Assembly: GCA_963767005.1 (NCBI GenBank) | Contig: CAVYCN010000003.1 | Location: forward strand, 64,001 to 128,000 | Reading direction: 5' to 3' | DNA from: an uncultured Actinomycetes bacterium | GTDB taxonomy: Bacteria; Actinomycetota; Thermoleophilia; UBA2241 | Length of the DNA: 64,000 nt | Made by a program: the position numbers and the translations under genes | Part shown: piece by piece, positions 4,355 through 62,031 of the stretch | Layout: each line of letters begins with the position of its first letter | Numbering within the stretch: the stretch's first letter is position 1 | The notes under the pieces: generated by a model | The model's input: only the letters and a program-made list of their open reading frames with translations | Database searches by the model: none | What the model was told of the DNA's origin: nothing

Positions 4355-5515
4355 ATGCCAGAAACGATGTCGCACTACGAGCGCATGCGAGCGGCCTGGA
4401 ACTGCGAGATCCCTGATCGTGTTCCCGTCATGCCCATGACGCTCTTCGTCGTCGCCCGCCAAGGCGGGATAACCATAGGTGAGTTCATCCGAGAGCCCGA
4501 GAAGTTCTTACGGGCAGCCCTGGACTGCCTGGACTTCATCGGCGACGCGCAACACCCGGGCATCAATGGCGCCAATCACATGTCACTGCTCGGCCATGCG
4601 GGCTGGGACATGACGACACTGGACTGGCGGCTCTGGGACGAGTTCCCTCCAAACGGCAACCTGCCGAGCATCTACGAGAAGATTCTCATCGACGACTACG
4701 ACGATGTCATGGACCGTGGGTTTGCCACAGTCATCTTCTCGACTGCCATAGAGAACGGTGTGCACAATCGTTCCATTGACGACTTCCTCTACTACCAGTT
4801 TGAACACACCAAGGTGATCTCTTCGCTGTGGCACCGGTTCTACCAAGAGACCGGCATCCCCATCCTCATGGGTGCCCGCGCGGAGCATCCTCTGGACATG
4901 CTGCAGTCATATCGTGGCATCAATCAGCTTGTGGAAGACATGTACACCGTCCCAGACAAGCTGCTTGATTTCATGAGCTGGCTTGCTGACTACGAGGTCA
5001 TGCAGGCCACCCGAGAAGCTCTCACCATGGGTGCCGGCGAGTTGCCGGGTGCCGAGAACGTCTTCTTCTACAACGGCGCGCCCCCTGGGCTGCCACCGGG
5101 ACTCTACGACGAGCTCTATCTCCCCATAGCACGGAAGATGATCAACGCCTGGGTCGACCGCGGATTCAACGTCTGGTGCCATTTCGACAACGACCAGACC
5201 CCTCATCTGGAGAGCATCAAGACATTCGCCGATGGCATCCCCAGGGGAAGAGTGCTGCTTGACTTCGAGAAGACCAACATGAAGCAAGCCAAGGAAGTTC
5301 TCGGCGGCACGCTGGCAATCTGTGGCAACGTGCCGTCGATGCTGCTGGTCTATGGCACACCGGACGAGGTCGACGCCTACTGCAAGAAGCTCATCGAGGA
5401 CTGTGCGCCCGGAGGCGGCTACGTGCTGGGCGTCGAATGCGAAACTCCTTGGGACGCGAAACGCGAGAACATCGTCGCGATGAAAGAGGCTGCCACCAAG
5501 TACGGAATGTACTGA
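4355..5515 (+). CDS. Uroporphyrinogen decarboxylase-family methyltransferase (MtaA/CmuA-like)
   Basis: PDRVPV N-terminus, HFD, AKEVLGGTLAICGNVP, LLVYGTPDEVDAYCKKLIEDCAPGGGYVLGVEC; adjacent to a corrinoid protein. Confidence 0.85.
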   Translation: MPETMSHYERMRAAWNCEIPDRVPVMPMTLFVVARQGGITIGEFIREPEKFLRAALDCLDFIGDAQHPGINGANHMSLLGHAGWDMTTLDWRLWDEFPPNGNLPSIYEKILIDDYDDVMDRGFATVIFSTAIENGVHNRSIDDFLYYQFEHTKVISSLWHRFYQETGIPILMGARAEHPLDMLQSYRGINQLVEDMYTVPDKLLDFMSWLADYEVMQATREALTMGAGELPGAENVFFYNGAPPGLPPGLYDELYLPIARKMINAWVDRGFNVWCHFDNDQTPHLESIKTFADGIPRGRVLLDFEKTNMKQAKEVLGGTLAICGNVPSMLLVYGTPDEVDAYCKKLIEDCAPGGGYVLGVECETPWDAKRENIVAMKEAATKYGMY

Positions 5516-5531: not shown

Positions 5532-5572
5532 CACGGGCGTGAGCTCGCCTAGAACGCGGGCTCACGCCCGTG
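5532..5572. terminator. Hairpin between convergent genes (probable bidirectional terminator)
   Basis: CACGGGCGTGAGC ... GCTCACGCCCGTG 13-bp inverted repeat. Confidence 0.55.
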
Positions 5573-6653
5573 TCTGTGCGCCAGAAGCCCCGCTCTTCAA
5601 GAGTTGGCCACGAACGGCCGGCATCTGCGCGTGGCGATCGCGACCGGCGGCAGACCCCGCCGCTACGGCGCCGGGCACGATGCGGGTGCCCGAGCGCCCG
5701 TCCATGGCCGGCACGACCTCGGTCAGGCCGGCGATGATCGAGGTGCCGCCCTCGCGGGCGAAGCGCAGGCAGGCGTTGACCTTGGGCCCCATCGAGCCGG
5801 CCTTGAAGTGGCCGGCGGCGGCGTACTCTTCCATCTCGGCGACCGTGACCTGGTCGAGGGCACGCTGCTCGGGCGTGTTGTACCCCAGGTAGACCTTGGG
5901 CACGTCGGTCAGGATGAGCAGCACGTCGGCGCCGACCTGGCGCGCGAGCAGGGCGGCGGCGAGATCCTTGTCGATGACCGCCGCGATGCCGTGGAGCTGG
6001 CCGCCCCGCTGGCGCACGACCGGTATGCCGCCGCCGCCCGAGCAGATCACGAGGCTGCCGGCCGCGATGAGGGCTGCGATCGCCGGGCCCGGTACGATCT
6101 CGCGGGGCTCGGGGCTGGGCACCACACGACGCCAGCCGCGGCCGGCGTCCTCGCGCATGGCCAGGCCCTCTTCGATCATCATCTTCTGGGCCTCGGCGGC
6201 GGTGTAGAACGGCCCGACCGGCTTTGACGGGTCGGCGAAGGCCGGGTCGGCGGCGTCGACCGCCACCTGCGTGAGCACCGTGGCGACCGGCGCGGCGAGC
6301 CGGCGCCGCGCCAGGTGGTTGCAGAGCGCCTGCTCGAGCATGTAGCCGATCTGGCCCTGGCTCTCGGCCCCGCAGACGTCCATGGGCATGGGCGCCACGG
6401 TCGAGGCGGCCAGGGCGTTCTGGATGAGCAGGTTGCCCACCTGCGGCCCGTTGCCGTGCGTCAGCACGACCTCCCAGCCCGCTTCGACGAGCTCGGCGAT
6501 GCGGCGCATCGCGGCGTCGACGTTGACGAGCTGCTCCTCGAAGGTGCCGAGCTGGCCGGGCTGCAGGATGGCGTTGCCGCCGAGGGCCACCACCACGGTC
6601 TTGCCGGCGCCTTTGCGGGCGCGCTGCGCTGCGGCTCCGACCGGCGGCGTCAT
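5562..6653 (-). CDS. arcC: Carbamate kinase
   Basis: VVALGGNA, THGNGPQVG, CGAESQGQIGY, EDAGRGWRRVVPSP, GGGGIPV, AVIDKD, GSMGPK. Confidence 0.96.
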   Translation of the reverse strand: MTPPVGAAAQRARKGAGKTVVVALGGNAILQPGQLGTFEEQLVNVDAAMRRIAELVEAGWEVVLTHGNGPQVGNLLIQNALAASTVAPMPMDVCGAESQGQIGYMLEQALCNHLARRRLAAPVATVLTQVAVDAADPAFADPSKPVGPFYTAAEAQKMMIEEGLAMREDAGRGWRRVVPSPEPREIVPGPAIAALIAAGSLVICSGGGGIPVVRQRGGQLHGIAAVIDKDLAAALLARQVGADVLLILTDVPKVYLGYNTPEQRALDQVTVAEMEEYAAAGHFKAGSMGPKVNACLRFAREGGTSIIAGLTEVVPAMDGRSGTRIVPGAVAAGSAAGRDRHAQMPAVRGQLLKSGASGAQTRA

Positions 6654-6720
6654 GAGACGCGCCTCGAGCCGCTGGACATCGTGCTGCGGCGGGCTGCTGC
6701 CATGGTCGCCGGCCCTGCGA

Positions 6721-6837
6721 TCAGGCGAGCAGGGCCGCGCCGACGTCGCGCAGCCGCGGGTCGGCCGGCAGCTCGTCGATGCCGATCAGCGCCAGCATGA
6801 GGCCCTTCTGGAAGTGCAGGCGGTTCTGCGCCTGCGG
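6721..6837 (-). pseudogene. C-terminal remnant of an ornithine/putrescine-type carbamoyltransferase
   Basis: Manual translation PQAQNRLHFQKGLMLALIGIDELPADPRLRDVGAALLA* matches the QAENRLH..K.L C-terminal motif; directly upstream of arcC. Confidence 0.7.
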
Positions 6838-6863: not shown

Positions 6864-8366
6864 TCAGGGAAGATCGGCCGACAGCAGCGCCCGCTCATAC
6901 GGGCCCCACTCGTCCTCAGCGATCAGACCGTTGCCGCGGTAGTAATCGCGTGCCTCAGAGAGAATCTGCTCAACCTCGGCTTCTTGTTCTGCGCTAAGGG
7001 GCGCAGCTCTGTGGCTGGCCAGGATGTCCCCGGCCTTCTCCCTGGCACGTTGCACGATGTCGGTCTTGCCGCCACGGACCCAGTCAACGTGAGTGCCCCA
7101 GTCCGCCACGAACGGGTTATAGCGGTTGTACGCCCAGTACTTCCTCGTCAAGGGTCGGTTCATGAAGCTGGCCGGCGCCGTGCCGACTTCAAGCGACTCA
7201 TCAAGAGCGAGCGTCTCGTCATCGATCTCGCTTCCCTGAAGGAAGCGACCGATCGAGCCAGCGATATCCTCATCGAGAACCTGAAGAACGTTGCTATAAC
7301 CCAGTTCTCCGGCGAAGCTGCCCTGCAGAGTGTGCAGGTGGCTTCCCGTCATGACGGAGAACAGCAGACCGAGAGACTTCTCCATGCCCGCCTGGTAGTC
7401 GAACATCTTGGCCTGTCCACAGAACCCTGCAGCAGTCGTCACAGGCAGTCCGAACTCTCGACACATCTGGTTGGCCATGGCACGCGCGTACCACGTCTCC
7501 GGGGCGCACGAGAGGCCATGGGCCCACTTGGTGTGCACCACACCGTCACAGGGGTGCAGGCCAAGCGGCGTCCCTCTGTGGATGAGCTGGGTAATCACGG
7601 CGAACGCAATGGTGCCGGCCCAAGACTGGACGATGACGCTGGGAAGGGGACCTGGCGCCGTTGCACCCGCACGACCACCGGGCGAAGCCCAGACACACCA
7701 ACCCAACTCAGCGAATCGCCAAATCGCCTCGAGAGCCTCGTCTCCGAACGCCACCGGTGGGGCAACGTCGATCTCGGCATCGAGCGTGGCGCCAACCGCT
7801 TGAGCCATCCTGATCGCAAACTGATCGGCATCTTTCATGTAGCCGAAGTGCTGCGGCTTGACCGAGTAGCGTAGACCGTTGGCCAGGCCTTCGAGCTGCT
7901 GCATGATGCCCGGCACGCCCTCCAAATCGGTGAAGCTAAAGAGGGCGTCCATGACGTGGACGTTGGGCAGGGCGTCGCCGACGATCTGCACCTCGGCATG
8001 CTCACGCAAGGTTGCCGGACGAAGCTCCCAGGTGTCGGGGTCGACATAGCGCATGCCCATGCCCTGAAGGAAGTGCACTCTATCGCCGCCAACGTGGACG
8101 TCGAAGCGTCGGTCGCGTGCCTTGATGTGATAGCCAGACGGAACGGCCGCAAGACACTCCTCGGCGAGCCCCGGCTCTATGCGGACCAGATCATTGGCCT
8201 GATCAACGGCACACCCGGCCTCACGAAGCAGCTCGATCGTGCGTGCATGCCGAACAAAGACGCCACCGCTCTGCAGGAGCTCAAGAGCATCCTGATGGAT
8301 ACAAGAAACCTCTCTCTTAGAGAGAACGTCGACGGGCGCGAAACGACGTACATAGCCGGACTGCAT
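6864..8366 (-). CDS. Trimethylamine methyltransferase (MttB) superfamily protein, non-pyrrolysine
   Basis: IHQDALELLQSGGV, GATAPGPL, APET, AKMFDYQAGMEK motifs; no in-frame TAG; next to a corrinoid protein. Confidence 0.88.
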   Translation of the reverse strand: MQSGYVRRFAPVDVLSKREVSCIHQDALELLQSGGVFVRHARTIELLREAGCAVDQANDLVRIEPGLAEECLAAVPSGYHIKARDRRFDVHVGGDRVHFLQGMGMRYVDPDTWELRPATLREHAEVQIVGDALPNVHVMDALFSFTDLEGVPGIMQQLEGLANGLRYSVKPQHFGYMKDADQFAIRMAQAVGATLDAEIDVAPPVAFGDEALEAIWRFAELGWCVWASPGGRAGATAPGPLPSVIVQSWAGTIAFAVITQLIHRGTPLGLHPCDGVVHTKWAHGLSCAPETWYARAMANQMCREFGLPVTTAAGFCGQAKMFDYQAGMEKSLGLLFSVMTGSHLHTLQGSFAGELGYSNVLQVLDEDIAGSIGRFLQGSEIDDETLALDESLEVGTAPASFMNRPLTRKYWAYNRYNPFVADWGTHVDWVRGGKTDIVQRAREKAGDILASHRAAPLSAEQEAEVEQILSEARDYYRGNGLIAEDEWGPYERALLSADLP

Positions 8367-8380
8367 CTTCAGGGCTCCTC

Positions 8381-9022
8381 TCAGACAGCGCCGACGAAGG
8401 ATTTGGCCAGCTCAACGGCTCCAGGTGCCGACGGTTCATAGCCGTCGGCGCCGATCTTGGCCGCGAAATCGGCGTTGATCGCACCCCCGCCCACCATGAC
8501 CTTGACCTTGTCACGCAGGCCAGCGTCCACGAGCATCTGGATCACTCGTCGGTCCTCAGCCGACGTGACGGTCAACAGTGCCGAAAGAGCCAGGACGTTG
8601 GCTTCGCCTTCACGCACCGCCTCGACGAAGCGCTCCGCGTCAACATCGATGCCGAGGTACTGCACATCGAACCCGGCGGCCAGTAGCAGCGTGCAAACCA
8701 TCTCGATGCCGATGGAGTGGATGTCGCCATGGACGGTCCCCGCGACGACCCTGCCCAGAGACTGCCTCTTGCCCCCCTCGGCCTTCAGAGCCTCTTCCAG
8801 GATGGGAGTCGCCGCCTTCATCGCATCAGCGGCTCCAATTAGATCCGGCAGCCATCGCGTCCCTGCCTCGAAGTCGTCGCCGATCGTCTTGATGGTCTGC
8901 GTCATGACGTCAAAGGCAGCGAGCGGATCGATGCCCTCGGCGATGGCGCCCTTGGCACACTCGGCAGCGGAAACCGCGTCATATTCATCTATGGCCTTTG
9001 CAAGGCCACTCAGCCTGTCCAC
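8381..9022 (-). CDS. Corrinoid methyltransferase cognate protein
   Basis: GDIHSIG motif, WLPDLIGAADAMK, LSALLT, VMVGGG, IGADGY. Confidence 0.93.
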   Translation of the reverse strand: MDRLSGLAKAIDEYDAVSAAECAKGAIAEGIDPLAAFDVMTQTIKTIGDDFEAGTRWLPDLIGAADAMKAATPILEEALKAEGGKRQSLGRVVAGTVHGDIHSIGIEMVCTLLLAAGFDVQYLGIDVDAERFVEAVREGEANVLALSALLTVTSAEDRRVIQMLVDAGLRDKVKVMVGGGAINADFAAKIGADGYEPSAPGAVELAKSFVGAV

Positions 9023-12145: not shown

Positions 12146-13777
12146 TCATTCTGGCGGAATTTCACGATAGTTGCGGCGCAAGTCTATCCCCTGCCTGTTG
12201 CGGACCGCAGATGACACGAAATAGACGCAGATGCCTGCCGCGTAGATTGCAAAGAAGGCAATGAACTGCGGGAAGTTGTGCCGAGGCGTGACGCCCATGT
12301 TGGCGTCCATGAGTGGCCGCCAGATCCACGTCACGGCCATGGGAATGGCGAGGATCGCAAGGACCGTGAGGTCCGGGACGCCAAACCAGGTGCGTGTGCC
12401 GGGTGACGACTTCCACACGTCCTTCTGCAGGTAGGGCAGCAGGCAGGCAGCAATCATGGCGGTGACCATGGGGATCATGAAGCCCCAGTTCGCCGAGATT
12501 GCCGTGAGATGTCCGTACGTAACGAGATAGCCGTACACAATCGAGGCGGCAGCGACGAGCCACGTCGCCACCCAGGGCTGATGAGAGCGAGCCGACACCT
12601 TCGAAACGGCGTCAGGCAGGACTCTGTCGATCGACCAAGCAAAGACGCAGCGCGAGGCCATGACCATGATCGCGCCGACCATGATCAGCGGATAGGTCAT
12701 GAAGCCAAGCATGAGCGGAATAGTCACCCAGCCGTGACCGATTGAACCACAGACGAGTGCGGCATAGCTTGGTGCGGCGGCAAGCCCGAAGGTTGAACTC
12801 GACATCGTGTTGCTGAGGTTCGCAAAGAACGGCGTCCCGAACAGTGAGCACATCCCGCCTATGACCAGCAGGGCCATCGCTGTCATGAACACGAGGGCGC
12901 CCACGCCCCCCATCATCTGATTGCGACCTGGGCTCTTCACCTCACCGCCGATGTACGCGCCGTAGAACGCCACAGCCAAGAAGACCAGTGGCCAGACGGT
13001 CGAGAAGTATGTCTGCGAGAAGGAGAAGTGCGGAGAACTCCCGGCAACGAGTTTCGAAGCACTGCCGAACTTCAACTGTGCGAAGAGCGGGTTGAGATGG
13101 GAGAGCGCTCCTGAGCGAGACGCTAGGAACGCGTAGAGAGCCATGACGATGAGCGAGGCAGCTCCTGCAATGACAAACACGGTCTGAGCCCTGTAGTAGA
13201 CCTTCGTCCCGAACGTCGTCATGACGAGCGCGAACACGACAATGAGCACAACGCAGGTGAGAAACGTCGCGTTGCGACCGCCAAACCATGTGCCGGCGCT
13301 GATCATCGAATGGCTGTTTAGTTGCACGCCGGCAATCTGCAGCATCGGTGAGAGACCGTAGCCGATGACATAGGCGCCGCCGACTCCGACGTAGAAGCAC
13401 GATCCCAGGACGAAGCAGAGGTTAGCGGCAAACCCTAATGCCGGGTGCAGGACCCGGGAGGCGTAGACGTACTCGCCGCCCGATCGGGGATAGATCGTCG
13501 ACAGCTTGATGTAGGCCAAGAGCACGGGAGCCATCATCAGGGACGCGAGCAGGATACTCAGGTACATGTTCGCCCCGACGTACAGCCAAGGGACGTAGAG
13601 CAGAATCCAGGCAAGGCCGAGGCCCATGACACCGTTGCTGGAGCTGATTCCAAAGGCGTCCCAGGCAGACACACTCCGGATCAACCCGCTCGCATTGCGC
13701 TTGTACTGTTTGGGTAGTGCCGATGGCTCAGTCGAGGGCGTTTGTGTCACGTGAGTTGGGTCAATCGTGGTTCCCAT
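12146..13777 (-). CDS. APC family amino acid/amine permease
   Basis: RNASGLIR, YPRSGGEYVYASR, GGEVKSP, multiple TM helices; start chosen at ATG with GGAGGGG RBS. Confidence 0.9.
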   Translation of the reverse strand: MGTTIDPTHVTQTPSTEPSALPKQYKRNASGLIRSVSAWDAFGISSSNGVMGLGLAWILLYVPWLYVGANMYLSILLASLMMAPVLLAYIKLSTIYPRSGGEYVYASRVLHPALGFAANLCFVLGSCFYVGVGGAYVIGYGLSPMLQIAGVQLNSHSMISAGTWFGGRNATFLTCVVLIVVFALVMTTFGTKVYYRAQTVFVIAGAASLIVMALYAFLASRSGALSHLNPLFAQLKFGSASKLVAGSSPHFSFSQTYFSTVWPLVFLAVAFYGAYIGGEVKSPGRNQMMGGVGALVFMTAMALLVIGGMCSLFGTPFFANLSNTMSSSTFGLAAAPSYAALVCGSIGHGWVTIPLMLGFMTYPLIMVGAIMVMASRCVFAWSIDRVLPDAVSKVSARSHQPWVATWLVAAASIVYGYLVTYGHLTAISANWGFMIPMVTAMIAACLLPYLQKDVWKSSPGTRTWFGVPDLTVLAILAIPMAVTWIWRPLMDANMGVTPRHNFPQFIAFFAIYAAGICVYFVSSAVRNRQGIDLRRNYREIPPE

Positions 13778-14296
13778 GCTCCCCTCCGGCTCAAGTGGGA
13801 CTACTTCTCGCCTGACGACGCCCCCACGACCGTCAGGCTTCAGTGAAACCGACGCGCCCCACAACTGCGTGGAGCGCCACGCTATCGTCTAAGTCGCTGG
13901 CGACATCATCCGCAATTGCTGGCCTCGCTCCGTCGCTCGTGGGTACCCCCGCTTTCTTCGGGCGCCACGACCGCCTCCCGCCGAAGTGGCCAAGTAGCCC
14001 TTTCGCTCATCGGTTGCGGCCCCCAAGTGGTCCGATAGGACTCACGAGCCGCACCCTAGCAGGTGTTGTCTATTTGTCAACAAGCGACGATGCTCTTCGC
14101 TGTCAGGCAAAGTACGACCTGAGTTTCCAAGCTAGGAAGAGGGCCGATGACCACCGGCAAATGACATAGAGTCAACACGCTGTTGCTTGTAACGAAACAC
14201 TGTCGTAGGGTAGTCGCGATATGCAGGCGCAGCGTCCCGCGCTAGCGCGCAGCGGTCGCTAGTTCGGCCTGACCAGTAGGAGAGGAGCCCCCTACC

Positions 14297-15232
14297 ATGC
14301 AGCACCACTTCCAGGGCAGAGACTTCCTGAAGCTCGCCGACTTCACCCCCGACGAGGTGCGCTTCATCGTCGACACGGCGATCGAGCTCAAGCGCAAGCG
14401 CCTGATCGGCGAGCTCTTCGAGCCGCTGCGCGGCAAGACCGTCGCCCTGATCTTCGAGAAGGCATCGACGCGCACCCGCCTGAGCTTTCAGGCGGGCATC
14501 GCCCAGCTCGGCGGCCAGACCTTCTACATGAGCCCCGACCAGATGCAGACCAGCCGCGGCGAGCCGATCTCAGACACGGCGCGCATCATCGACCGCTACT
14601 GCGAGGGCCTCTTCATCCGCACCTTCGGCCAGGAGGTCGTCGAGGAGTTCGCCCGCTACATGCTCAACCCGGTGATCAACGCGCTGACCAACGAGACCCA
14701 CCCCTGCCAAGGCCTCTGCGACCTGATGACGATCAAAGAGAAGAAGGGCCACTACAAGGGCCTCAAGGTCGCCTACCTGGGCGACATCTGGAACGTCTGC
14801 CACTCGCTCATGATGGGCTCCGCCATGCTCGGCATGGACTTCTACGCCGCCCAGCCCAACGAGAGCTATCAGCCCAACGCCGAGCAGCTCGCGATCGCCC
14901 AGAAGTGGGCCGCCCTCTCGGGGTCGAAGATCGTCTATACGCCCGACCTCGAAGAGGTCGCCGGCCAGGCCGACGTGATCTACGGCAACACCTGGCACTC
15001 GATGGCCACCGAGAACCGCGAGCAGCGCCTCAAGGACTTCGCCCCCTACCAGGTCAACATGCGCGTGATCGAGATGGCCAAGCCTGACGTGATCTACATG
15101 CACTGCCTGCCGGGCTACCGCGGCGAGGACATGGTCGACGAGGTCATCGAGAGCCCCTACTGCGCCTTCTGGGACCAGGGTGAGAACCGCATGCACACCG
15201 AGAAGGCCGTCGCCGCGCTCTTTCTCGGCTGA
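14297..15232 (+). CDS. Ornithine carbamoyltransferase-family transcarbamylase (atypical substrate loop)
   Basis: FEKASTRTR, HPCQ, HCLP, QGENRMH; the usual DxxxSMG loop reads GNTWHSMA. Confidence 0.9.
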   Translation: MQHHFQGRDFLKLADFTPDEVRFIVDTAIELKRKRLIGELFEPLRGKTVALIFEKASTRTRLSFQAGIAQLGGQTFYMSPDQMQTSRGEPISDTARIIDRYCEGLFIRTFGQEVVEEFARYMLNPVINALTNETHPCQGLCDLMTIKEKKGHYKGLKVAYLGDIWNVCHSLMMGSAMLGMDFYAAQPNESYQPNAEQLAIAQKWAALSGSKIVYTPDLEEVAGQADVIYGNTWHSMATENREQRLKDFAPYQVNMRVIEMAKPDVIYMHCLPGYRGEDMVDEVIESPYCAFWDQGENRMHTEKAVAALFLG

Positions 15233-15328
15233 AGGAGCACGGCCCTTCGAATGATTCAGGGTCACCGCAGGGTCAACACGACGTCAATCACTGAAGCGCG
15301 GTCTGCTGCAAAGACGAGGAGGACAACA

Positions 15329-16252
15329 TTGGACACTCTCACAGAGTCTGCTGCATCAACACCCGTCAGCGAGCGATTCCCGGACGGATGGGGAGCATTC
15401 AGCAAGATCGGCTTGCTGCGGGACGTACTTCTCGGGGATCCAAGCTACTTCAGCTGGCACCCGACGAGCGCGATCTCACGGGCAACCCTGACCAACCTCG
15501 CAACCCGAGGCGTGGTCTACGACTCCGAGCTTGCCAAGCGACAGCACGAAGCCATGGTTCAGGTCTACCGGGAAGCCGGCGTGCGAGTTCACTTTGCCCG
15601 AGGCGACAAGGATGCTCCCTACTCGGTCTTCACCCGTGACTCAAGCGTGATGACCCCCTGGGGCCCTGTGATCATGAGCCTGCAGCCTGCGGTGCGTCGT
15701 CGCGACCACAGCACCGCGGTCGACTTCTACCACGCCGCTGGCATCCCGATCTGGAAGTGGATCACGGCTGGGCACATGGAGGGCGGCGACGTCGTCATCA
15801 TCGAGCCAGGTGTCGTGATGATCGGCTACTGCGAAGAGCGTTCACAGCAGTCTGGCGCAGAGCAGTTGGCTGGCTGGTTCAGAGAAGAGGGCTGGGAAGC
15901 TCTTGTGGTGGCCAACCCCGCCCACTTCGTTCACATGGACGCGCTCGTTCTGCCGGCCGCTCCCAAGACCGTCGTTCTCTGTCGCGATGCCCTTGAGGAC
16001 TACGTCACGGACTTCTTGAAAGCCCATGGCTATGACTTCATCGATGTGCCCTACAAGGACTGCGTTCGACTGGGTTGCAACGTCATGCCTTTGGGAAACG
16101 AGCGGATTCTCTCGCTCGAAAGCAACGACACCCTGAACAAGAAGCTGGGCGCTCTGGGTCTGAGTGTGTCTGCGGTCGACATGTCGATGTACGCCCTGGG
16201 TGGCGGCGGCGTGCATTGCCTCTCGATGGAGATCCGCCGAGAGGCAGAGTGA
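15329..16252 (+). CDS. Guanidino-group hydrolase, arginine deiminase/amidinotransferase/DDAH superfamily
   Basis: SVFTRDS, HMEGGD, HMD, GCN, GGGGVHCLS (catalytic Cys/His/Asp pentein motifs); TTG start after GAGGAGG. Confidence 0.88.
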   Translation: MDTLTESAASTPVSERFPDGWGAFSKIGLLRDVLLGDPSYFSWHPTSAISRATLTNLATRGVVYDSELAKRQHEAMVQVYREAGVRVHFARGDKDAPYSVFTRDSSVMTPWGPVIMSLQPAVRRRDHSTAVDFYHAAGIPIWKWITAGHMEGGDVVIIEPGVVMIGYCEERSQQSGAEQLAGWFREEGWEALVVANPAHFVHMDALVLPAAPKTVVLCRDALEDYVTDFLKAHGYDFIDVPYKDCVRLGCNVMPLGNERILSLESNDTLNKKLGALGLSVSAVDMSMYALGGGGVHCLSMEIRREAE

Positions 16253-16346
16253 GACCGGCTGACGATCTGCCTCTCAGATTCGGTACTGCGCCAACCGTTC
16301 GCCAGCAACTGTCGGAAAGCCAAAGTGGAAAGGGGGGAATCGAACC

Positions 16347-17765
16347 GTGAGCACCTCAGCATCCACCGTCCGGAAGACCCTGCCCGAGCGGCCGGGCGTC
16401 TTTGTGGCCTACGAGCGCGCCATGAAGGGGCCCAAGGTCGACGAGAAGGACTGGGACTATCACGTCATTCCCGAGACCGCTAAGCGCCTCAAGGAAAAGT
16501 ACGGGATCGCGATGGACAAACACGTCATGATCCCGACCGACCCCGACCTCATGAAGCGCCTCTATCAGGCCGGCCTTGAGATGCTGGTCGAGTGCGGCAT
16601 CTACTGCATCGACACGGGCCGCGTCATCAAGTGGAGCGAAGAGGAAGTGCTCTGGGGCGTCGCCCACGCTCCCAGGGCGGCAGTCATCGGCGAGGGCCTG
16701 CACGGCCGGCCGCTCGTGCCACGCCACGCAAACGACCCGCGACCGCCGCTCGTGCAGGGCGGTCCCACCGGCGCGCCCTGCAGCGAGAAGCACTTCTTCG
16801 GCATCCACTACTCCTACGCCAAGGAGGGCATCGTCGACTGCATTGTCGACGGCGTGCTGGAGACGATCGACGGCTACAACCCCGCGCCGGACAGCCCCTG
16901 GGAGGTGATGGCCGGCAAGCAGGAGGTGCTCTACGTGCGCCAGGCTCAGGCTCGAGCCAACCGCTCGGGCATGGGGTTATAGGGCCCCGAGACGCCGCTC
17001 GCCCCAGCCTCCGTCATTGCGGCGGACTTCCCCGGTGGCATGCGGGCGTCGGACAACCACGAGGTGTCGCAGCTCAATGAGCTGAAGTGCGACGCAGGGG
17101 CGTTGACCTTCACGGCTCATTACAACCAAGCGGCAGACATCATCATGGTTGAGCAGATGCCGATCTATGGCGGCTTCGCCGGTGGCCTCGAGGAGAGCAC
17201 CATCGTCGACTGCGCCACCCATCTGAACTCGTTCGTCATGTACGGCGGCACCTGGCACTTGGACGGCCCGGTCCACATGCGCTGGGGCATCACGACGACA
17301 AGAGAGGCTCTGGCCATCGCGGGCCACGCCAACCGCGCCATCGAGGAGGCCCATCCCCACTTGCTGACCGGCAACCAGTACTACACCCTGGCCGGCCCCT
17401 GCACCGTGATGTGTCTTCTGGAGACCGCCGCGCAAGCGATCACCGATACCGGCAGCGGCCGCGAGATCATGTCCGGAGTGGCAGCCGCCAAGGGCGTCAT
17501 TATCAACAAGACGACCGGCATGGAGGCACGCTTCATGGGCGAGTGCGCCCACGCCGTGGCCGGCCTGCCGATCGAGCAGGTCAACGAGATCCTCGACGCC
17601 CTGGTCGCCCGCTACGAGGGCAACTACAAGGCGGCCCCCGAAGGCAAGCCCTACGAGGACTGCTACGACACCGTCAAGGTGGTGCCCACCGACGAGTACC
17701 TCGGCGTCTACGACGCAGCCGTCACGGAGCTCGAGGGTCTCGGCGTCCACTACAAGCTCTGGTGA
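16347..17765 (+). CDS. mtmB: Monomethylamine:corrinoid methyltransferase with in-frame UAG (pyrrolysine, residue 212)
   Basis: ORFs 16347-16982 and 17040-17765 are in the same frame, joined by one TAG at 16980-16982 in the context RSGMGL-TAG-GPETPLA...DNHEVSQLNELK, matching the MtmB Pyl site (RPGMGV-O-GPETSLS...DSHEVSQLNELK); read-through gives 472 aa. Confidence 0.93.
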
Positions 17766-17846
17766 CGAGGGCAGGTGAGTCGACCATGGATGGCCTTGGG
17801 GCTCTACCTGTCGGACCCTGGGAGCCGTGAGGAGGACGAGCGAGCG

Positions 17847-18497
<651 letters not shown>

Positions 18498-18591
18498 GAC
18501 GACCGAAGCCCTCTAATCGGCTGGTTGCTCCACTACCACCACGATCGTCGTTCGGTCGTGCCCCCAGGGTGGTGTGTCAACCAGCGCCGGC

Positions 18592-18626
18592 GCCGCAGGC
18601 CCCCTGGCCTCCCAGGGGCCTGCGGC
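18592..18626 (+). terminator. GC-rich hairpin after the mtmBC operon
   Basis: GCCGCAGGCCCC...GGGGCCTGCGGC inverted repeat. Confidence 0.5.
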
Positions 18627-18793
18627 TCCCCGGCCCTTCACGCTGAGATGGCGATCGCAGCCGTCATCGGCAGACAACGGACGCCACTTCGAAGATCCAG
18701 CACGACGACCCTGCGTGGCCTTGTGCAGTCAATGAATGCGTGCGCTCTCGACCTACCGCCGGGAATCAGCTGCCCGCGTTCTCTCCGCACCGG

Positions 18794-18810
18794 TGCTTAA
18801 GAACTTCGAA
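18794..18810. repeat. Dispersed repeat copy 1 (TGCTTAAGAACTTCGA)
   Basis: Same 16-mer at 48977-48992 and 51033-51048. Confidence 0.8.
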
Positions 18811-18817
18811 TTATGTC

Positions 18818-18919
18818 CTTGAGAAGGTCGGCCGGGCCGCGTCGCGCGACGAGACGCGGCCGATCCTCACGGGCGTGCTCGTCACGATCGGCGCCGGCAA
18901 GCTCAAGATGGTCGCCACC
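18818..18919 (+). pseudogene. dnaN: Internal fragment of DNA polymerase III beta clamp
   Basis: LEKVGRAASRDETRPILTGVLVTIGAGKLKMVAT matches the conserved DnaN A..DETRP.LTGV...L.MVATD segment. Confidence 0.75.
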
Positions 18920-19296
18920 GGCGCGTGAACAGCGCAACGTGCTGGCCGTTGTCCTAAGACGCCGACGCGGAGCCGACGCGACCAGACCGCGGCAGATTGG
19001 CCCTTCTTGCGGAGTCAGCTAGCGGACGTCTCGGGTCGCCCCCGCGAGAGGGAAGCAATGCGTCAGAGGTCTTCAGCCAACTTCGTAGTAGTCGCAAAAG
19101 TCGGCCTCACCTATTTCGCCTACCGGCGCGTACTTGGCCCAGAGATCGCCGCAGTCGCGACCTCCACTTCCGGTGGCGAGCAAGCGACTAGCCCTCACTG
19201 GGGCCATCATCGCCAAATCCGACGCGGTGCTTGATGTCGTAGTTGGAGTCTCCTGGCTCACGCGACTGAGACGCGGTGCGGCGCCTGCCTGATCGA

Positions 19297-19788
19297 CTAT
19301 GCGACCACCACATCCATGTACTCGACCAGACGCCGAGAGTGATCGAAGTAGCCAATCACGTCACCAATGCTAGCCGTCGGATTCCCCCCGTGCGCGAAGT
19401 CGTTCCGCGCGTCAACCAGCGACTGAAGAGAGGCCAATAGCTGGATCTTGTCTTGGTCGCCGTCAACCGTTCTCTTGAACAAGAGATGCCAATCTTCGTC
19501 GAAGTCCTTCAGATGACTGCACATGTTGGTGTAGGAAGGATTGGAGGACGACTCCCGGACCCGCACGCGAAGAAACCGCTTGACCTGCTTCTTGCTGCGA
19601 TGGGAGCAGTAGTCTGCAATCAGCGCCTTGAAGGCCTGCTCAAGAGACCCGCACGCCCTGACAATCGCGTACTTCGTCAGGTACGGCACGACTGCGCTGG
19701 CTGGACCTAGTGACTTGATGAGTATCGCGAGATCGTCGAGCTCCCTGGCGCAGTCATCCAGCCCTTGCTCGACAACCTTGTTGTTCAT
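19297..19788 (-). CDS. HEPN domain protein (RiboL-PSP/MAE_28990-like)
   Basis: LVDARNDFAHG (RxxxxH) motif; translationally coupled to the DUF262 gene. Confidence 0.78.
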   Translation of the reverse strand: MNNKVVEQGLDDCARELDDLAILIKSLGPASAVVPYLTKYAIVRACGSLEQAFKALIADYCSHRSKKQVKRFLRVRVRESSSNPSYTNMCSHLKDFDEDWHLLFKRTVDGDQDKIQLLASLQSLVDARNDFAHGGNPTASIGDVIGYFDHSRRLVEYMDVVVA

Positions 19789-20909
19789 TCGCGGACTCCG
19801 AAGAGGTAACGGGCCGCCATGTTCACCCGCGCATCAATGCAGGTCCGCGACATGGTTTCCTTTGTGATGGCAAACCGGTATTGCTCGTTCTTCAGAAGTG
19901 CGCGGCGCTCCGACTCGGGGTGCTCCGGCATCTCGTAGCCGACGGACAGAGCGCGGTCCGCGGCGATGAGCAGCGAATCACAGAGCGTGGGGCTGAACTT
20001 GGGGACGAGCCTGTCGGGATCTGACGGCGATACGTTGTGGAAGGCAGTTCGGCCGAACTCTGCGTGTACCAGGTGGACACTCTTGAGAAAGCGTTGACGC
20101 AAATCCTCGAGCCCCGCTACGTCCGGATCGATGTGCGCCTTCATGTACGTGTCGAGGAATCGCTTCAACGACAGCCGTTCTGTCTCGCCGTCGCCATACT
20201 CTGAGGAGCTGAGAGCGAAGAACCTGAGGATGAACTCCATATCTCGCATCCGGCACTCCGGCTCGCGCAGCCCGAATAGCTCCCGCCAGTTCAAGTCGCG
20301 GTTGAGTTCGAATAGCAGTCCGTTAAGACCGCCCTGGGCGACGCAGTTCCGAATCTCCTGAGGCAACAGAGTGCGGCCGCTGGTGTTGATTCGCTCGAAG
20401 ACCTGAAAGAGGCTGGTGTCGTCATCCTCAGGATGCTTCTGCACGAAGATGATGGCGTGGATGGTGGTGTTGCGAATTCGCCGCTGCTTCTCTTCGTCTA
20501 GCTCCGCGAACGACTTACCTTGCCAGCGGGCGTTCACCTTCTGAGAACGGGAAAGGCGAAACGCACGGCCATCCCCAGAGAAGACTCCCCGGACGTAGTC
20601 GCGGACCGTCATGATCCGCTGATATCCATCGACGATCAGCAATTTCTCGTCGTCAGTCTGGGCAAGAAAGATGCTCGGCACAGGCAACCCGAGTAGGAGC
20701 GAGTCAATGAAGCGTGACGCCTCAATCCTGTCCCAGACGTAGTTTCTTTGAAGTTCGGGCTTTACGAGCTCATCGTCGTCATACCGTTGGATGAGCTCGC
20801 GAAAGGAGAGGTCGGCCCCCCACGATGAGATTCTGAAGAGGCTGTCGTCTGAGTAGCTGTCCGACTCCTCCTCCCGAATGTGTTGGATGACGTCACGCTG
20901 TTGAGCCAC
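19785..20909 (-). CDS. DUF262 (ParB/GmrS-like) domain protein
   Basis: PELQRNYVW, SRFIDSLLLGLPVPSIF, IVDGYQR, FERINTSG motifs. Confidence 0.9.
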   Translation of the reverse strand: MAQQRDVIQHIREEESDSYSDDSLFRISSWGADLSFRELIQRYDDDELVKPELQRNYVWDRIEASRFIDSLLLGLPVPSIFLAQTDDEKLLIVDGYQRIMTVRDYVRGVFSGDGRAFRLSRSQKVNARWQGKSFAELDEEKQRRIRNTTIHAIIFVQKHPEDDDTSLFQVFERINTSGRTLLPQEIRNCVAQGGLNGLLFELNRDLNWRELFGLREPECRMRDMEFILRFFALSSSEYGDGETERLSLKRFLDTYMKAHIDPDVAGLEDLRQRFLKSVHLVHAEFGRTAFHNVSPSDPDRLVPKFSPTLCDSLLIAADRALSVGYEMPEHPESERRALLKNEQYRFAITKETMSRTCIDARVNMAARYLFGVRE

Positions 20910-21112
20910 TCCCGCCTCCCCGAATACGCGCGCATGTTCAGAAGTCCACCGCCTTCTCAACCTGAGCGTACGACCGGACGGCAGTCCCGTCCAGGAACGA
21001 CCAGACGGCTCACCAATTCAGGATGACCCTTCGCACGAGAGCACTCTCGCATGCCGTGCGAACAACATTGCAGGGGCTGGTCTGGGCGACACCCAGCGCC
21101 AAGTCGCGCCGA

Positions 21113-21188: not shown

Positions 21189-21237
21189 TCTTCTGGAGGC
21201 GGCGACCGGAGTCGAACCGGTGATTAAGGTTTTGCAG
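21189..21237 (-). repeat. att site: 49-bp duplicate of the tRNA-Cys 3' half
   Basis: TCTTCTGGAGGCGGCGACCGGAGTCGAACCGGTGATTAAGGTTTTGCAG identical to 61953-62001. Confidence 0.95.
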
Positions 21238-32908: not shown

Positions 32909-33907
32909 CTAGCCTGACGTCATCTGATAGCCCACCACCTTGCCGGGCTCGAGCGTGATGATGCAGCCCCGGATGATGCCCTCGCCGTACTCGCTGCCGG
33001 GGTTGATGACGGTCGTGCGACCGAGGTTCACAAGGCCGCGCGACTCGTGGATGTGTCCCGTAAGGGCGAGCAGGGGCGCGTGCTTCTCGATGATCTTGCG
33101 CACCGCCGTGCTGCCGGCCGGCGCCGACTGCGGCACGCCGGCGATGACGATGGGCGAGGGCGGGTCGGTCGACCAGTCGAGCTTGGGGCAGTCGTCGAGC
33201 GTGCAGTCGTAGGGCGGCACGTGCATGTTGAAGATGGCGCTCGTGAAGTCGTCGATGCCGTCGACCGCCTGCTCGAGCAGCGTGTAGAGGGACTCCTCAT
33301 CGGTCTCGCGCGGCGTCGCCCAGGGCGTCGGGTTGCTGTGGCCGCAGTTGGCCATGGGGTAGAAGTCGTCGAACAGCACGACCCGGCCCTCGCAGTTGAC
33401 TACATGCTCGCTCTGCACCTCGTCGAAGACGGTGAGCACGTCGGGCGGGTCGTCGTTGCCGCCGGTCACGTACCACTTGATCGGCGTGTCGGCGAGGCGC
33501 TCGTCGGCCAGCGCGATCCAGCGCTCGATGCGCTCGCGCGCCAGGCGATGGAACGTGCCGTCGACCTGTGACTGGTCCGCCTGCATGGCGTGGAGCTCGT
33601 CCTCGGCCATCGTCACGTGGTAGAAGCCGAGCGTCTCGATGCGCTCCTTGATGGCGGCCAGGGCGTCGTCGCCCTCGATGTGCTCGGTCGTGCCCTGGAG
33701 CGTCACGCGGTAGTGGCTGTCGTGCTCATGGACGATGGGCACGAGGAACTTGCCCATGATGTCGCCGCCCATGATGATGTGGTCGACCTTGTAGAACTTG
33801 GCGCAGTTCACGAACTTGCGGAACGTGCGCTCCGAGCCGTGCACGTCGGTCGCATAGAACAGGCGCACGCGTTTGGCCCCGCCGTCCTTCTTCTTGAACA
33901 GTCCCAT
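32909..33907 (-). CDS. Calcineurin-like metallophosphoesterase
   Basis: DVHGS, GGDIMGK, GNDD, GHIHES, NPGSEY; paralog of 11102-12061. Confidence 0.88.
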   Translation of the reverse strand: MGLFKKKDGGAKRVRLFYATDVHGSERTFRKFVNCAKFYKVDHIIMGGDIMGKFLVPIVHEHDSHYRVTLQGTTEHIEGDDALAAIKERIETLGFYHVTMAEDELHAMQADQSQVDGTFHRLARERIERWIALADERLADTPIKWYVTGGNDDPPDVLTVFDEVQSEHVVNCEGRVVLFDDFYPMANCGHSNPTPWATPRETDEESLYTLLEQAVDGIDDFTSAIFNMHVPPYDCTLDDCPKLDWSTDPPSPIVIAGVPQSAPAGSTAVRKIIEKHAPLLALTGHIHESRGLVNLGRTTVINPGSEYGEGIIRGCIITLEPGKVVGYQMTSG

Positions 33908-33923
33908 GGCGTGACCCGTCCTC

Positions 33924-34736
33924 TCAGTCGATCTCGTTGTACCACTTGACCTTGTCGCCGACCTTGGAGCGCAGGCGCCAGCGGGTGCCCTTGGGCTCAT
34001 CGTCCATCGCCTTGAGCAGCTCGCCGACGCGCTGCGCCACGACGGCGCGGTCTTCGTCGGACAGGTCGACGTGCGGCAGGTAGTCGCGTACCTTGCCGAG
34101 GTTCATCGAGCTCGTGCGCCACAGGCCCCACTCGCCGGCGCACAGGGTGGCGATCCGGGCCGCGTTTATGTGATCGGCGTCGTCGCGCGCGATCTCGTGC
34201 TCGCGCAGCAGCATGATGGTGTCGATGATGTCCTTCTCGTTGATCTTGACGATCTGCATCTTCTCCAGGACGAGCTCGGCCAGCGGGATGGTGGGGCTGT
34301 CGACGGCGAGCCGGTCCTTCCAGGGGATGGGGTGGCAGAAGTCGAGCCGGTCCATGAAGACGTCGACGTGGATGTGCTTGACCGGGTGGTTGAAGATCAG
34401 GCGCCCGGCCTCGGCGTGGAAGCTGTTGATCTCGACGTCCTCGTCGTAGCCGAGCGCGATGAAGAGGTCGCGGATCGGCTTTGACTGCTTGCCGTAGCCG
34501 GCGAAGTCGATGTCGGTGTACACGCGGTTGAGCTTGGCCTGGATCCAGCCGAACTGCGGGCAGTGATGGTGGAAGGCAAGGGCGCCGATCACGCGCAGCG
34601 CCACGCCGGCCTGCTGACCCGCCTGGACGACCCGCAGGGCCTCGTCCTCGAACACCCGCGCGAGGTCGGCGTCGGGCTGGCCGACGCCGACCTGCGCGCC
34701 GACCTCGCCGGCGGGGTGGGTGCCTTCGTCACTCAT
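33924..34736 (-). CDS. Uncharacterised nucleotidyltransferase-like protein
   Basis: LRVIGAL, YTDIDF, VDVF, LEKMQIVKINEKD. Confidence 0.65.
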   Translation of the reverse strand: MSDEGTHPAGEVGAQVGVGQPDADLARVFEDEALRVVQAGQQAGVALRVIGALAFHHHCPQFGWIQAKLNRVYTDIDFAGYGKQSKPIRDLFIALGYDEDVEINSFHAEAGRLIFNHPVKHIHVDVFMDRLDFCHPIPWKDRLAVDSPTIPLAELVLEKMQIVKINEKDIIDTIMLLREHEIARDDADHINAARIATLCAGEWGLWRTSSMNLGKVRDYLPHVDLSDEDRAVVAQRVGELLKAMDDEPKGTRWRLRSKVGDKVKWYNEID

Positions 34737-35264
34737 AGCTTGCTCCCACATGTCTCGAGACGATGACCAGCTCGCTCGCGGTGCTCCAATCGTGAGCGTC
34801 CAGAACCAAGAACGATGCGAGCAGATGGCCGCCCAACGTCTGCTTGGAGGTAAACTGATCAGTGTCGTGCATGGTAACGGAAAGTTGAGCGAAGTTGACG
34901 ACAGTCTAGGCTCTCCTTGCTACTCGTCAAGCTCAGCCAGTTCTTCCATCGCGGGTTTGAGGTCACTGTCCGGGCTTGTGGGGCCGCGGGCTCGCAGTCT
35001 TGAGGTGGAGCGACGGCGGCATCGCCGCCGCTCCACCGTTCGGACAGCTGGCTTGCACTCTGGGGGCAGCACGCAAGTTGTCCGCACTCGCCAGCAACCG
35101 GGGGAGACAGAGGCTGCTGGCAAGCTTTGCCTTGTTGTTGGGAGGTTTGGTCGCGTCGGGAGGCTGACCAGGGGCACGCCAACCCAGCGATGTACCCCGA
35201 CGGCACCTCAGGAACCCCGCCGTCCGTGCATTGCTCGCAAGTGTGGCGCGTTCCAGGACACGGA

Positions 35265-36644
35265 TCAGACGAGACCCTGGTCGAGCATGCTGTCGGCGAC
35301 CTTGACGAAACCGGCGATGTTCGCGCCGTTCACGTAGTTGCCGGGCGTGTCGTACTCGTTGGCCGCGTCGACGCACTGCTTGTGGATGGCCTTCATGATC
35401 CCGTGGAGACGGGTGTCGACCTCTTCGCGCGTCCAGGCCAGGCGCAGGCTGTTCTGGCTCATCTCGAGACCGGAGGTGGCCACGCCGCCGGCGTTGGCGG
35501 CCTTGCCGGGGCCGTAGAGGATGCCGGCCTTGACGAACTGCTCGACGCCTTCGGGGACCGTCGGCATGTTGGCGCCTTCGGAGACCACGTACACGCCGTT
35601 CTTCAGCAGGTTGGCGGCGTCCTTGGCGTTGATCTCGTTCTGGACGGCGCTCGGGAAGGCCGCGTCGGCCTTGATGTCCCACAGCGGGTTGTGGTCGGCG
35701 TTCCTGTCGATCGGGTAGAACTTGGCGCCGAACTTGTCGGCGTACTCCTTGATGCGGCCGCGCTTGACGTTCTTGAGCTCGAGCAGGAAGGCGAGCTTCT
35801 CGCGATCGATGCCCTCGGCGTCATGAATGAAGCCGCTCGAGTCGGACAGCGTGACGGCCTTGCCGCCCAGGTCGAGGATCTTCTCGACGGTGTACTGGGC
35901 GACGTTGCCCGAACCGCTGACCAGGCAGGTCTTGCCCTCGAGGGTGTCGTCGCGCGTGTTCAGCATCTCCTCGGCGAAGTAGACCGCGCCGTAGCCGGTC
36001 GCCTCGGGACGGATCAGCGAGCCGCCCCAGTTGAGGCCCTTGCCCGTCAGCACGCCGACGAACTCGTTGCGGATGCGCTTGTACTGGCCGAACATGAAGC
36101 CGATCTCGCGACCGCCGACGCCGATGTCGCCGGCGGGGACATCGGTGAACTGGCCGATGTGCCGGCTGAGCTCGGTCATGAAGCTCTGGCAGAAGCGCAT
36201 GACCTCGCCGTCGCTCTTGCCCTTGGGGTCGAAGTTCGAGCCGCCCTTGCCGCCGCCCATGGGGAGCGTGGTGAGAGCGTTCTTGAAGACCTGCTCGAAG
36301 GCGAGGAACTTGAGCATGCCGAGGTAGACGGTCGGATGGAAGCGCAGGCCGCCCTTGTAGGGGCCGATGGCGCTGTTCATCTCGATGCGGAAGCCCTTCT
36401 GGATCTGGATCTCGCCCTTGTCGTCGACCCAGGGGACACGGAACATGATGACGCGCTCGGGCTCGATGATGCGCTCGAGGATCTTGGCTTCGCGGTACTT
36501 GGGATGGCGCGCGAGCACGGGCTCGAGCGACTCGGCGACTTCCTGGACGGCCTGGTGGAACTCGAGCTCGCCCTGGTTCTTGGCCACGACGTCGGCCATG
36601 AGCTTCTTCACGTACTCGGTCTTCGGTGCGGTAACCACGCTCAC
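35265..36644 (-). CDS. gdhA: NADP-specific glutamate dehydrogenase
   Basis: GPYKGGLRFHP, LPMGGGKGGS, DVPAGDIGVG, RPEATGYG, SGSGNVA, EGANMP. Confidence 0.97.
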   Translation of the reverse strand: MSVVTAPKTEYVKKLMADVVAKNQGELEFHQAVQEVAESLEPVLARHPKYREAKILERIIEPERVIMFRVPWVDDKGEIQIQKGFRIEMNSAIGPYKGGLRFHPTVYLGMLKFLAFEQVFKNALTTLPMGGGKGGSNFDPKGKSDGEVMRFCQSFMTELSRHIGQFTDVPAGDIGVGGREIGFMFGQYKRIRNEFVGVLTGKGLNWGGSLIRPEATGYGAVYFAEEMLNTRDDTLEGKTCLVSGSGNVAQYTVEKILDLGGKAVTLSDSSGFIHDAEGIDREKLAFLLELKNVKRGRIKEYADKFGAKFYPIDRNADHNPLWDIKADAAFPSAVQNEINAKDAANLLKNGVYVVSEGANMPTVPEGVEQFVKAGILYGPGKAANAGGVATSGLEMSQNSLRLAWTREEVDTRLHGIMKAIHKQCVDAANEYDTPGNYVNGANIAGFVKVADSMLDQGLV

Positions 36645-36975
36645 TTCAGAGCCCTCCATTTTTGAACAGCAAGAGCTGATCTAGCCTGCGACATAGCATT
36701 GCGGCACCGCCGCGCCGCCCACAAGACTGGCCTATGCCGCCGTTCGCTCTTCTCCAACCTGCACTCAAAACTCTCATGAGTTGGCAGTGTCGAGAAAAGA
36801 GTTAGCCACAATCGAAGGGCACGGGCCGGCGATCATCGCTATGTCGCTTGTTCTGACGTGAGCGATCAGGCTGACGTGCTGATGATTGGGATGCGCATAC
36901 TCTCACGGGTCCAGACGGAAGCGACCCAACCACTATCACATGGCCGACTGCCTTGCCCGAGATCAGACGGACGCG

Positions 36976-38196
<1,221 letters not shown>

Positions 38197-41922: not shown

Positions 41923-42590
41923 CGACCTCCTGCCTGCGTCTTAGGTCGAAACAGTTGCTTGGCCATCTCCACGGCTTCATATGCCGTGGCGGAGAAGCCG
42001 TCAGCCCCGATGGCCTCTGCCCACTCCGCGGTCGTGGCTCCCCCACCTACGATCACTTTGTAGGCGCCGCGCTTGCCACTCCCTGCCAAGACATCGATGA
42101 CGTCCTTCTGACCGGACAGCGTCGTTGTCAGCAAGGCCGAGCATGCGATGATGTCGGCGTCGACCTCTTCGGCCTTCGAGACGAAGTCGAAGGGTGCCAC
42201 ATCGACGCCCAGATCATGAACGGAGAAGCCGGCAATACGGAGCAACAGCCCGAGGATGTTCTTGCCGATCGAGTGTATGTCGCCCCGAACCGTGCCGAGG
42301 ACGACGACACCCGCCTTGACCACCGACTGACCTGAGGCTTCAAGAGCCGGCTCAAGCAGCGACATAGCTCGCTCAAAGGCGACCGCAGATTGCATCATCT
42401 CCGGAAGGAACAGCTCATCCGCCAGGAAGAGTCGTCCCACTTCGTCCATCGCGGGCACCAGTGCGTCATCTATGATCTCCCTGGGACCGATGCCGGCTGC
42501 CAAGGACTCTCGCACGCACGTCTCAACGGCCTCCGCATCTCCAGCGATTACGGCCCTGCGCGTGCCGCTCTCTGGCTCCTTTGCGCTCAT
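41919..42590 (-). CDS. Corrinoid methyltransferase cognate protein
   Basis: LFLPEM, GTVRGDIHSIGKNI, CSALLTTT, IGADG. Confidence 0.93.
   Translation of the reverse strand: MSAKEPESGTRRAVIAGDAEAVETCVRESLAAGIGPREIIDDALVPAMDEVGRLFLADELFLPEMMQSAVAFERAMSLLEPALEASGQSVVKAGVVVLGTVRGDIHSIGKNILGLLLRIAGFSVHDLGVDVAPFDFVSKAEEVDADIIACSALLTTTLSGQKDVIDVLAGSGKRGAYKVIVGGGATTAEWAEAIGADGFSATAYEAVEMAKQLFRPKTQAGGR

Positions 42591-61957: not shown

Positions 61958-62031
<74 letters not shown>

Follow-up and report, generated by a model that had tools for sequence, protein, structure and literature searches.

The window, a 64,000-nucleotide stretch of contig C3 of an uncultured bacterium, contains a gene for monomethylamine:corrinoid methyltransferase, mtmB, whose reading frame is crossed by a single TAG codon (Table 1). 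As the initial annotation described, two ORFs lie in one frame with this TAG as the sole internal stop, and reading through it gives a product of 472 residues in which the TAG is residue 212, with NRSGMGL before it and GPETPLAPAS after it. The start codon is GTG, preceded by a purine-rich stretch (16327-16337). Under translation table 11, the gene is divided into ORFs 16347-16982 and 17040-17765.

Directly after mtmB comes an MtmC-like corrinoid protein gene, an arrangement seen with the cognate corrinoid gene in most homologous loci. Genes for ornithine carbamoyltransferase (OTC) and an ADI/DDAH-fold hydrolase precede mtmB, and the gaps in this run are 18 bp (OTC-hydrolase), 94 bp (hydrolase-mtmB), and 81 bp (mtmB-mtmC). 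The window also holds a TAG-less MtmB paralog (40504-41922, minus strand) with its own corrinoid gene (41919-42590, minus strand). This paralog is 24% identical to the Pyl enzyme and is without the active-site set described below; two further TAG-less paralogs lie on C2 and C19, and 8 of 11 congeners have paralogs of this kind.

Table 1. Features of the window, numbered from its first nucleotide
Feature	Position	Strand	Basis or remark
URO-D-family protein, possible second-step methyltransferase	4355..5515	+	weak match; no NCBIfam hit at 1e-10
Carbamate kinase	5562-6653	-	profile match
Interior near-identical to chromosomal paralog, carbamate kinase	5668-6837
Non-Pyl MttB-family methyltransferase	6864-8366	-	profile match
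Corrinoid protein	8381-9022	-	profile match
APC-family amino acid permease	12146..13864	-	profile match; divergent from the OTC-hydrolase-mtmB-mtmC run
Interior near-identical to chromosomal paralog, OTC	14280-15223
Ornithine carbamoyltransferase (OTC)	14297..15232	+	profile match; interior probably overwritten by chromosomal paralog at assembly
ADI/DDAH-superfamily amidinotransferase-fold hydrolase	15251..16252	+	intact Cys-His-Asp type motifs; below every NCBIfam curated cut-off
mtmB, monomethylamine:corrinoid methyltransferase, 472 aa by read-through	16347..17765	+	Pfam and PDB matches
In-frame TAG at codon 212, the counterpart of Pyl202 in M. barkeri MtmB1	16980..16982	+	PDB alignment; homologous loci
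Weak Rfam PYLIS_1 match, probably coding-sequence homology only	16980..17079	+	46.1 bits, many non-standard pairs
Corrinoid protein, MtmC-like, 216 aa	17847..18497	+	TIGR02370 above cut-off (ORF 17775-18497); AGGAGG upstream
Att-like 49-bp exact copy of part of tRNA-Cys, right border of the ~37-kb mtmB element	21189..21237	+	repeat search
Interior near-identical to chromosomal paralog, gene pair	32911-34736
Interior near-identical to chromosomal paralog, glutamate dehydrogenase	35261-36657
Interior near-identical to chromosomal paralog, GAPDH	37007-37998
tRNA-Cys, target of the tandem element array	61958..62031	-	GC climbs past it, from about 0.65 to 0.72

The mtmB reading frame and its TAG

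The read-through product matches the Pfam MtmB family (PF05369) at 665 bits over nearly the full profile (3-449 of 450), and the PDB entries 1l2q, 1nth, and 1tv2 at about 530 bits. Residue 212 pairs with the X/K at position 202 in 'grpgmgvxgpetsls', which places the TAG in the pyrrolysine (Pyl) column, as had been proposed. Positions matching E205, E229, E259, Q333, and Y335 of M. barkeri, which we take to be active-site residues of MtmB, are all present; a literature search on Glu259 gave no hit. The same set is found in 24 of 26 TAG-type rows, the exceptions being one truncated row and one E205Q substitution. None of the 12 rows for TAG-less paralogs has it.

The TAG occupies the identical column in 27 of 27 homologous loci, which are 50-89% identical and span GC contents of 0.39-0.67. 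These comprise 15 metagenome loci plus loci from the family or class; the count leaves out the window's locus, a duplicate, and a hit restricted to residues 232-444, and two rows come from one genome. Within the alignment of 17 homologous loci, there is no stop besides TAG. In five of five pairs, dN/dS lies at 0.13-0.34 both before and after the TAG, indicating purifying selection on both halves.

This pattern is hard to reconcile with the rival explanation, in which the TAG arose as a nonsense mutation or sequencing error or genuinely ends the first of two separate half-proteins. TAG commonly ends genes in this genome (959 of the 2950 called), the C-terminal half of mtmB stands in databases as a separate 240-aa protein, and the assembly bears signs of error elsewhere, namely frameshifted neighbours and homogenised paralogs. 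Nevertheless, chance or error would have to have produced the same codon in the same column across the 27 loci and their range of GC, and that column is the Pyl of a solved enzyme. The ATG at 17040, which would start the second half-protein, is not kept: several homologs have CTC, CTT, CTG, or TTG there. Contigs from four public runs, belonging to four studies, span the site, and among the differences listed for them, positions 16979 and 17006 differ and none falls at 16980-82. We give this explanation a negligible probability. The two ORFs are one intact mtmB, and its TAG is neither a chance stop nor a sequencing error.

A structured PYLIS hairpin downstream of the TAG was rejected on two grounds. 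The match to PYLIS_1 (RF01982) scores below the gathering threshold of 70 bits, and there is no excess folding 3' of the UAG (folding z +0.79; synonymous-shuffle mean z of 0.09, 0.07, and -0.69 for 45, 60, and 90 nt in 28 rows). Because folding is not in excess, the match probably reflects mere homology of the coding sequence.

Predicted pyrrolysine decoding in the host

The genome assembly, 3.44 Mb in 19 contigs with 100% completeness and 4.87% contamination, contains all six bacterial Pyl decoding genes. The search that the initial annotation had called for found pylT, pylSc, pylSn, and pylBCD on mtmB's own contig, about 155-166 kb away. PylSc (298 bits; gene at C3:236048-236911), PylSn (122), PylB (428), PylC (279), and PylD (195) are all above NCBIfam cut-offs. 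The pylT assignment rests on ARAGORN and folding: the called tRNA-Pyl has a CUA anticodon and a cloverleaf fold, and it scores below the Rfam gathering threshold. Bacterial pyl genes are described in one passage of PMC11467909 as a compact cluster. Here pylSc, pylSn, and pylBCD-T are spread over about 10.5 kb on both strands with unrelated genes between them, which is a variant of layout in which no part is missing. A second pylB (56%) and pylD (47%), without a second pylC, adjoin a Pyl-mttB in a lower-GC stretch at C4:551818-554312.

One TAG is present in 8 of 8 MtbB and 7 of 41 MttB matches, at one aligned motif per family, giving 16 TAG-containing methylamine methyltransferases in the genome with mtmB included. 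The methyltransferase repertoire is very large, as 34 of the 41 MttB-family matches, some of which are fragments, are without TAG. Corrinoid proteins number at least a dozen genome-wide. The genome also has a tRNA-Sec (C4:389248-389345) and a CAR-TGA-H motif (C19:163121), presumably formate-dehydrogenase-like, and selenocysteine is probably in use in this host alongside pyrrolysine.

The claim that the host recodes UAG as Pyl stands as ambiguous decoding and falls as a genome-wide statement, since TAG is a common stop and release factor RF1 is present above cut-off. In this genome, TAG terminates 32.5% of the genes called by the codon-model caller that we built for this analysis; in genetic code 34, by comparison, TAG is unused as a stop. 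Genome-wide reassignment of TAG to Pyl, as a bacterial counterpart of archaeal code 34, would agree with the 16 Pyl-type genes, the second pylB/pylD pair, and the near fixation of the machinery in the family, and yet the stop usage and RF1 make it exceedingly improbable. The synthetase genes point the same way: pylSc ends in TAG, TGA, or TAA in 22, 19, and 6 of 47 rows (some rows being one genome twice), with no conserved extension.

A read-through screen also gave no convincing case outside the methyltransferases. It returned 61 TAG sites that are coding-like on both sides, and among the 38 listed sites judged by eye, only MttB and MtbB rows resembled read-through, so that extra Pyl proteins of other kinds were set aside. 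The screen is insensitive, because the list that was judged contained 4 of the 16 known sites, mtmB being absent from it.

Three further candidates were rejected. Both pylSc and pylSn terminate with TAG in this genome, and pylSn does so in 9 of 37 rows; autoregulation through these stops was discarded because the stops vary freely and the extensions are unconserved. An apparent TAG inside PylSc of another genome is merely its terminal stop, and an apparent TGA inside MttB on C10 lies upstream of the true start.

We conclude with high confidence that mtmB is intact and that its TAG, at the Pyl column, is likely decoded as Pyl by the host tRNA-Pyl and split PylSn plus PylSc, yielding a predicted methyltransferase. 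We infer Pyl insertion at residue 212, and homology assigns monomethylamine as the probable substrate. PylBCD would make Pyl from lysine, and Pyl-tRNA(CUA) would compete with RF1 at the UAG to give full-length and truncated products. Because TAG is a frequent stop, RF1 is present, and stops interchange, decoding is best read as such a competition, which a section of PMC12626013 argues for M. acetivorans.

Pyl212 would then bind methylamine, and the methyl group would pass to the adjacent corrinoid protein, which may be reactivated by a RACo/RamA-type protein encoded on C4. From there, it would move through a methyl-THF:corrinoid methyltransferase into the folate C1 branch, with release of ammonium. 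RACo, MTHFR, and FTHFS are present, and a methyl-THF:corrinoid methyltransferase is above cut-off. The search for acetyl-CoA synthase found none in this genome and gave matches in 7 of 11 congeners, some of them fragments. Because none was found, the methyl group is more likely oxidised through the folate branch than used for acetogenesis.

The element that carries mtmB

The gene lies within a lower-GC stretch, C3:1-126 kb (GC 0.61-0.68 versus about 0.71), that is cut by direct repeats of part of tRNA-Cys at C3:10838, 47930, and 85189 and by the tRNA itself. The left border of the ~37-kb mtmB element is at C3:47930-48006, outside the window. Together, window 21189-62031 and C3:10838-85237 form a tandem array of three bounded elements of 37-41 kb. 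Each has a terminase-large-subunit-like gene at one end, in two cases after a ParB/DNA-methylase gene, and two have a tyrosine integrase at the opposite end, with metabolic cargo between. No capsid gene was seen among the ORFs scanned in these elements, which presumably resemble cargo-carrying satellite elements.

Neither an integrase nor a pyl gene was found in the mtmB element. A Pyl-dependent gene therefore moves as cargo that relies on the code of its host. Since TAG-type mtmB is absent from all 11 congeners (searched with this mtmB as query) and the gene sits on a lower-GC element without a detected integrase, mtmB may be recent. These observations would also suit a Pyl-type mtmB that is silent or decaying cargo here, unexpressed or inefficiently read through, as would its GC3 of 0.89, at the 6th percentile when set against the remaining genome, and a scan of 13800-19300 (expecting fewer than one hit by chance) that found no sigma-70-type promoter. 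We nonetheless consider silence or decay very unlikely, given that the gene keeps an intact frame, start, set of active-site positions, and partner gene, that both halves are under purifying selection versus their nearest relatives, and that the host has the whole decoding set.

Other parts of the element deserve mention. At its right end, a GmrSD N-terminal domain and RiboL-PSP-HEPN pair (19297-20960, minus strand) is probably a defence module. A short frame at 18820-18930 (plus strand) reads SRDETRPILTGVLVTI, which we take to resemble part of DnaN, the DNA sliding clamp.

Several ORFs in the window have interiors 99-100% identical to chromosomal paralogs, and their starts, ends, and flanks differ from them (Table 1). 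In one public run, pieces beside OTC show 0 differences and a piece inside OTC shows 68 in 585. Because the differences are confined to the interior of OTC, the only gene examined in this way, homogenisation during assembly is likelier than gene conversion. It also fits better than the capture of host genes through exact copying of their ORFs into the elements, which we rejected.

The genes around mtmB-mtmC, with OTC and the hydrolase ahead of it and the permease, non-Pyl MttB, corrinoid protein, and carbamate kinase on the opposite strand, hint at a deiminase-type route that would supply MtmB with methylamine. In such a module, the permease, guanidino hydrolase, OTC, and carbamate kinase would make ATP from an N-methylated arginine-like compound, Pyl-MtmB/MtmC would scavenge the methylamine, and the elements would exploit the family-fixed Pyl decoding. 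We regard this idea as doubtful. In its favour, contigs in two runs from two studies span the OTC-hydrolase junction, and a 99% hydrolase match and a 92% match to an MtmB half each come from a contig of 27,530 bases, possibly one and the same. FVED and HLK are DDAH-type motifs, and FTRD and HxD are ADI-type. Against the module, none of the contigs listed bridges the hydrolase-mtmB gap, and the hydrolase has ADI-type motifs (FTRD and HMD) and occurs in 1 of 89 family genomes; it scores 74 bits as a DDAH, with a cut-off of 340.

A conserved OTC-hydrolase-mtmB linkage, which would also favour the module, was rejected, being absent from two sets of mtmB loci (17 and 16), many of which have short flanks. 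A literature search returned nothing joining an ADI/DDAH-fold hydrolase with MtmB, and plasmid homologs of the hydrolase show no methylamine context in the two records viewed out of 18. Three Pyl-mtbB genes lie about 7 kb from a chromosomal cluster (C18:84737-89695) that comprises a second ADI/DDAH-fold hydrolase, a CN hydrolase, a nucleobase permease, a cyclase, and an OTC.

Distribution in Thermoleophilia and comparison with known systems

Marker-gene comparison places the host in Actinomycetota, class Thermoleophilia: its RpoB is 97% identical to that of a Thermoleophilia MAG, 92-98% to isolate bog_752, and 85% to Thermoleophilia UBA6103. The assembly has no 16S rRNA gene. Because RpoB is near that of bog_752, and Bog-752 is assigned to the Thermoleophilia family UBA2241 in the PMC10805028 supplement, the host family is probably UBA2241.

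PylSc occurs in 81 of 89 family genomes, covering all 11 genera, and PylSn in 82 of 89. In a sample of the class, 51 of 55 genomes of the family have PylSc, against 9 of 55 in a second family and none of 190 in the remaining ten families; in an even sample of the phylum, it was found in 1 of 400 other genomes. The same amidase gene precedes pylSc in 11 of 11 named loci. For the five of these loci with RpoB compared, the identities of PylSc and RpoB fall together (87/96-97, 84/97, 84/92-98, 65/85, and 63/76-84%). This synteny, with PylSc identity tracking RpoB, points to vertical inheritance. TAG-type mtmB is patchy, in 12 of 89 family genomes, and the other mtmB loci lie beside their own corrinoid gene and often near mtbB, permeases, or RACo. 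With the same high confidence as the decoding of the TAG, and jointly with it, we read the decoding machinery as an old chromosomal trait of the family and the mtmB-mtmC pair as accessory cargo that depends on it.

An actinobacterial carrier had been flagged as notable. The host is indeed of this phylum, and the novelty is smaller than supposed, since such hosts are already reported in passages of PMC9630628 and PMC10805028. An excerpt of Guo et al. 2022 (PMC9630628) records PylRS in two Actinobacteria, rows of its supplement list the PylSc of a Thermoleophilia MAG, and a passage of PMC11764691 repeats the PylRS report. Ellenbogen et al. 2023 (PMC10805028) describe, in one part of the paper, Actinobacteriota peat MAGs that express Pyl-mttB and mtbB, and Bog-752 is named there among the most active methylotrophs. 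The first 30 of 54 raw BLAST rows of that study include the MtmB of a UBA2241 MAG, split into two parts (residues 2-201 and 230-458), and mtmB is unmentioned in its main text (0 hits). As far as these portions go, the Pyl systems of the two papers belong to the same class and probably the same family, UBA2241.

In the portions of PMC9630628 and PMC10805028 considered here, we found no mention that nearly the whole family has the trait, that the pyl locus is scattered yet syntenic, or that mtmB sits on a mobile element. Passages of PMC13695967 contain nothing further on this lineage. A search of mostly non-subscription literature found no paper stating a family-wide Pyl distribution. What is added here is the near family-wide occurrence of PylSc and the mobile location of mtmB; the gene type itself is known.

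This mtmB is a textbook gene type that gene callers split, and methylamine use by peat and soil Thermoleophilia is therefore under-annotated. About nine in ten family genomes encode the Pyl synthetase within constant chromosomal surroundings, with TAG making up about a third of stops in this genome. The family is thus a natural test case for bacterial tolerance of an ambiguous amber codon and can supply high-GC PylRS/tRNA pairs for expanding the genetic code. Its members are candidate competitors of methylotrophic methanogens for wetland methylamines.

The closest characterised counterpart is MtmB1 of Methanosarcina barkeri (PDB 1L2Q, 1NTH, 1TV2-4), with which our protein shares a full-length match and the amber codon at the Pyl202 column. 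As with MtmB1/MtmC/pylTSBCD, a corrinoid protein is adjacent, and the Pyl biosynthesis and decoding genes are in the genome. Unlike in M. barkeri, the host is bacterial, the synthetase is split into PylSn and PylSc, and the pyl genes are far from mtmB; in addition, the predicted methyl acceptor is THF rather than CoM, and a PYLIS structure is unsupported.

Outside the lineage, the nearest named relatives are Firmicutes Pyl-MtmB proteins, 71-72% identical over the C-terminal half, from Sporomusa acidovorans, S. silvacetica, Desulfosporosinus hippei, and Peptococcaceae SCADC1_2_3. In a FastTree phylogeny containing no archaeal sequence, the Firmicutes branch stands next to the Thermoleophilia-type clade (connecting-node support 0.69-0.75). 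Unlike these carriers, ours is a high-GC actinobacterium. Bacterial Pyl is described as confined to a few methyltransferases and one dehydratase in part of a preprint (bioRxiv 10.1101/2024.09.30.615893). Finally, archaeal code 34 (Kivenson et al.) resembles the present system in having Pyl machinery and TAG as a sense codon in methyltransferases, whereas here TAG stays a frequent stop.
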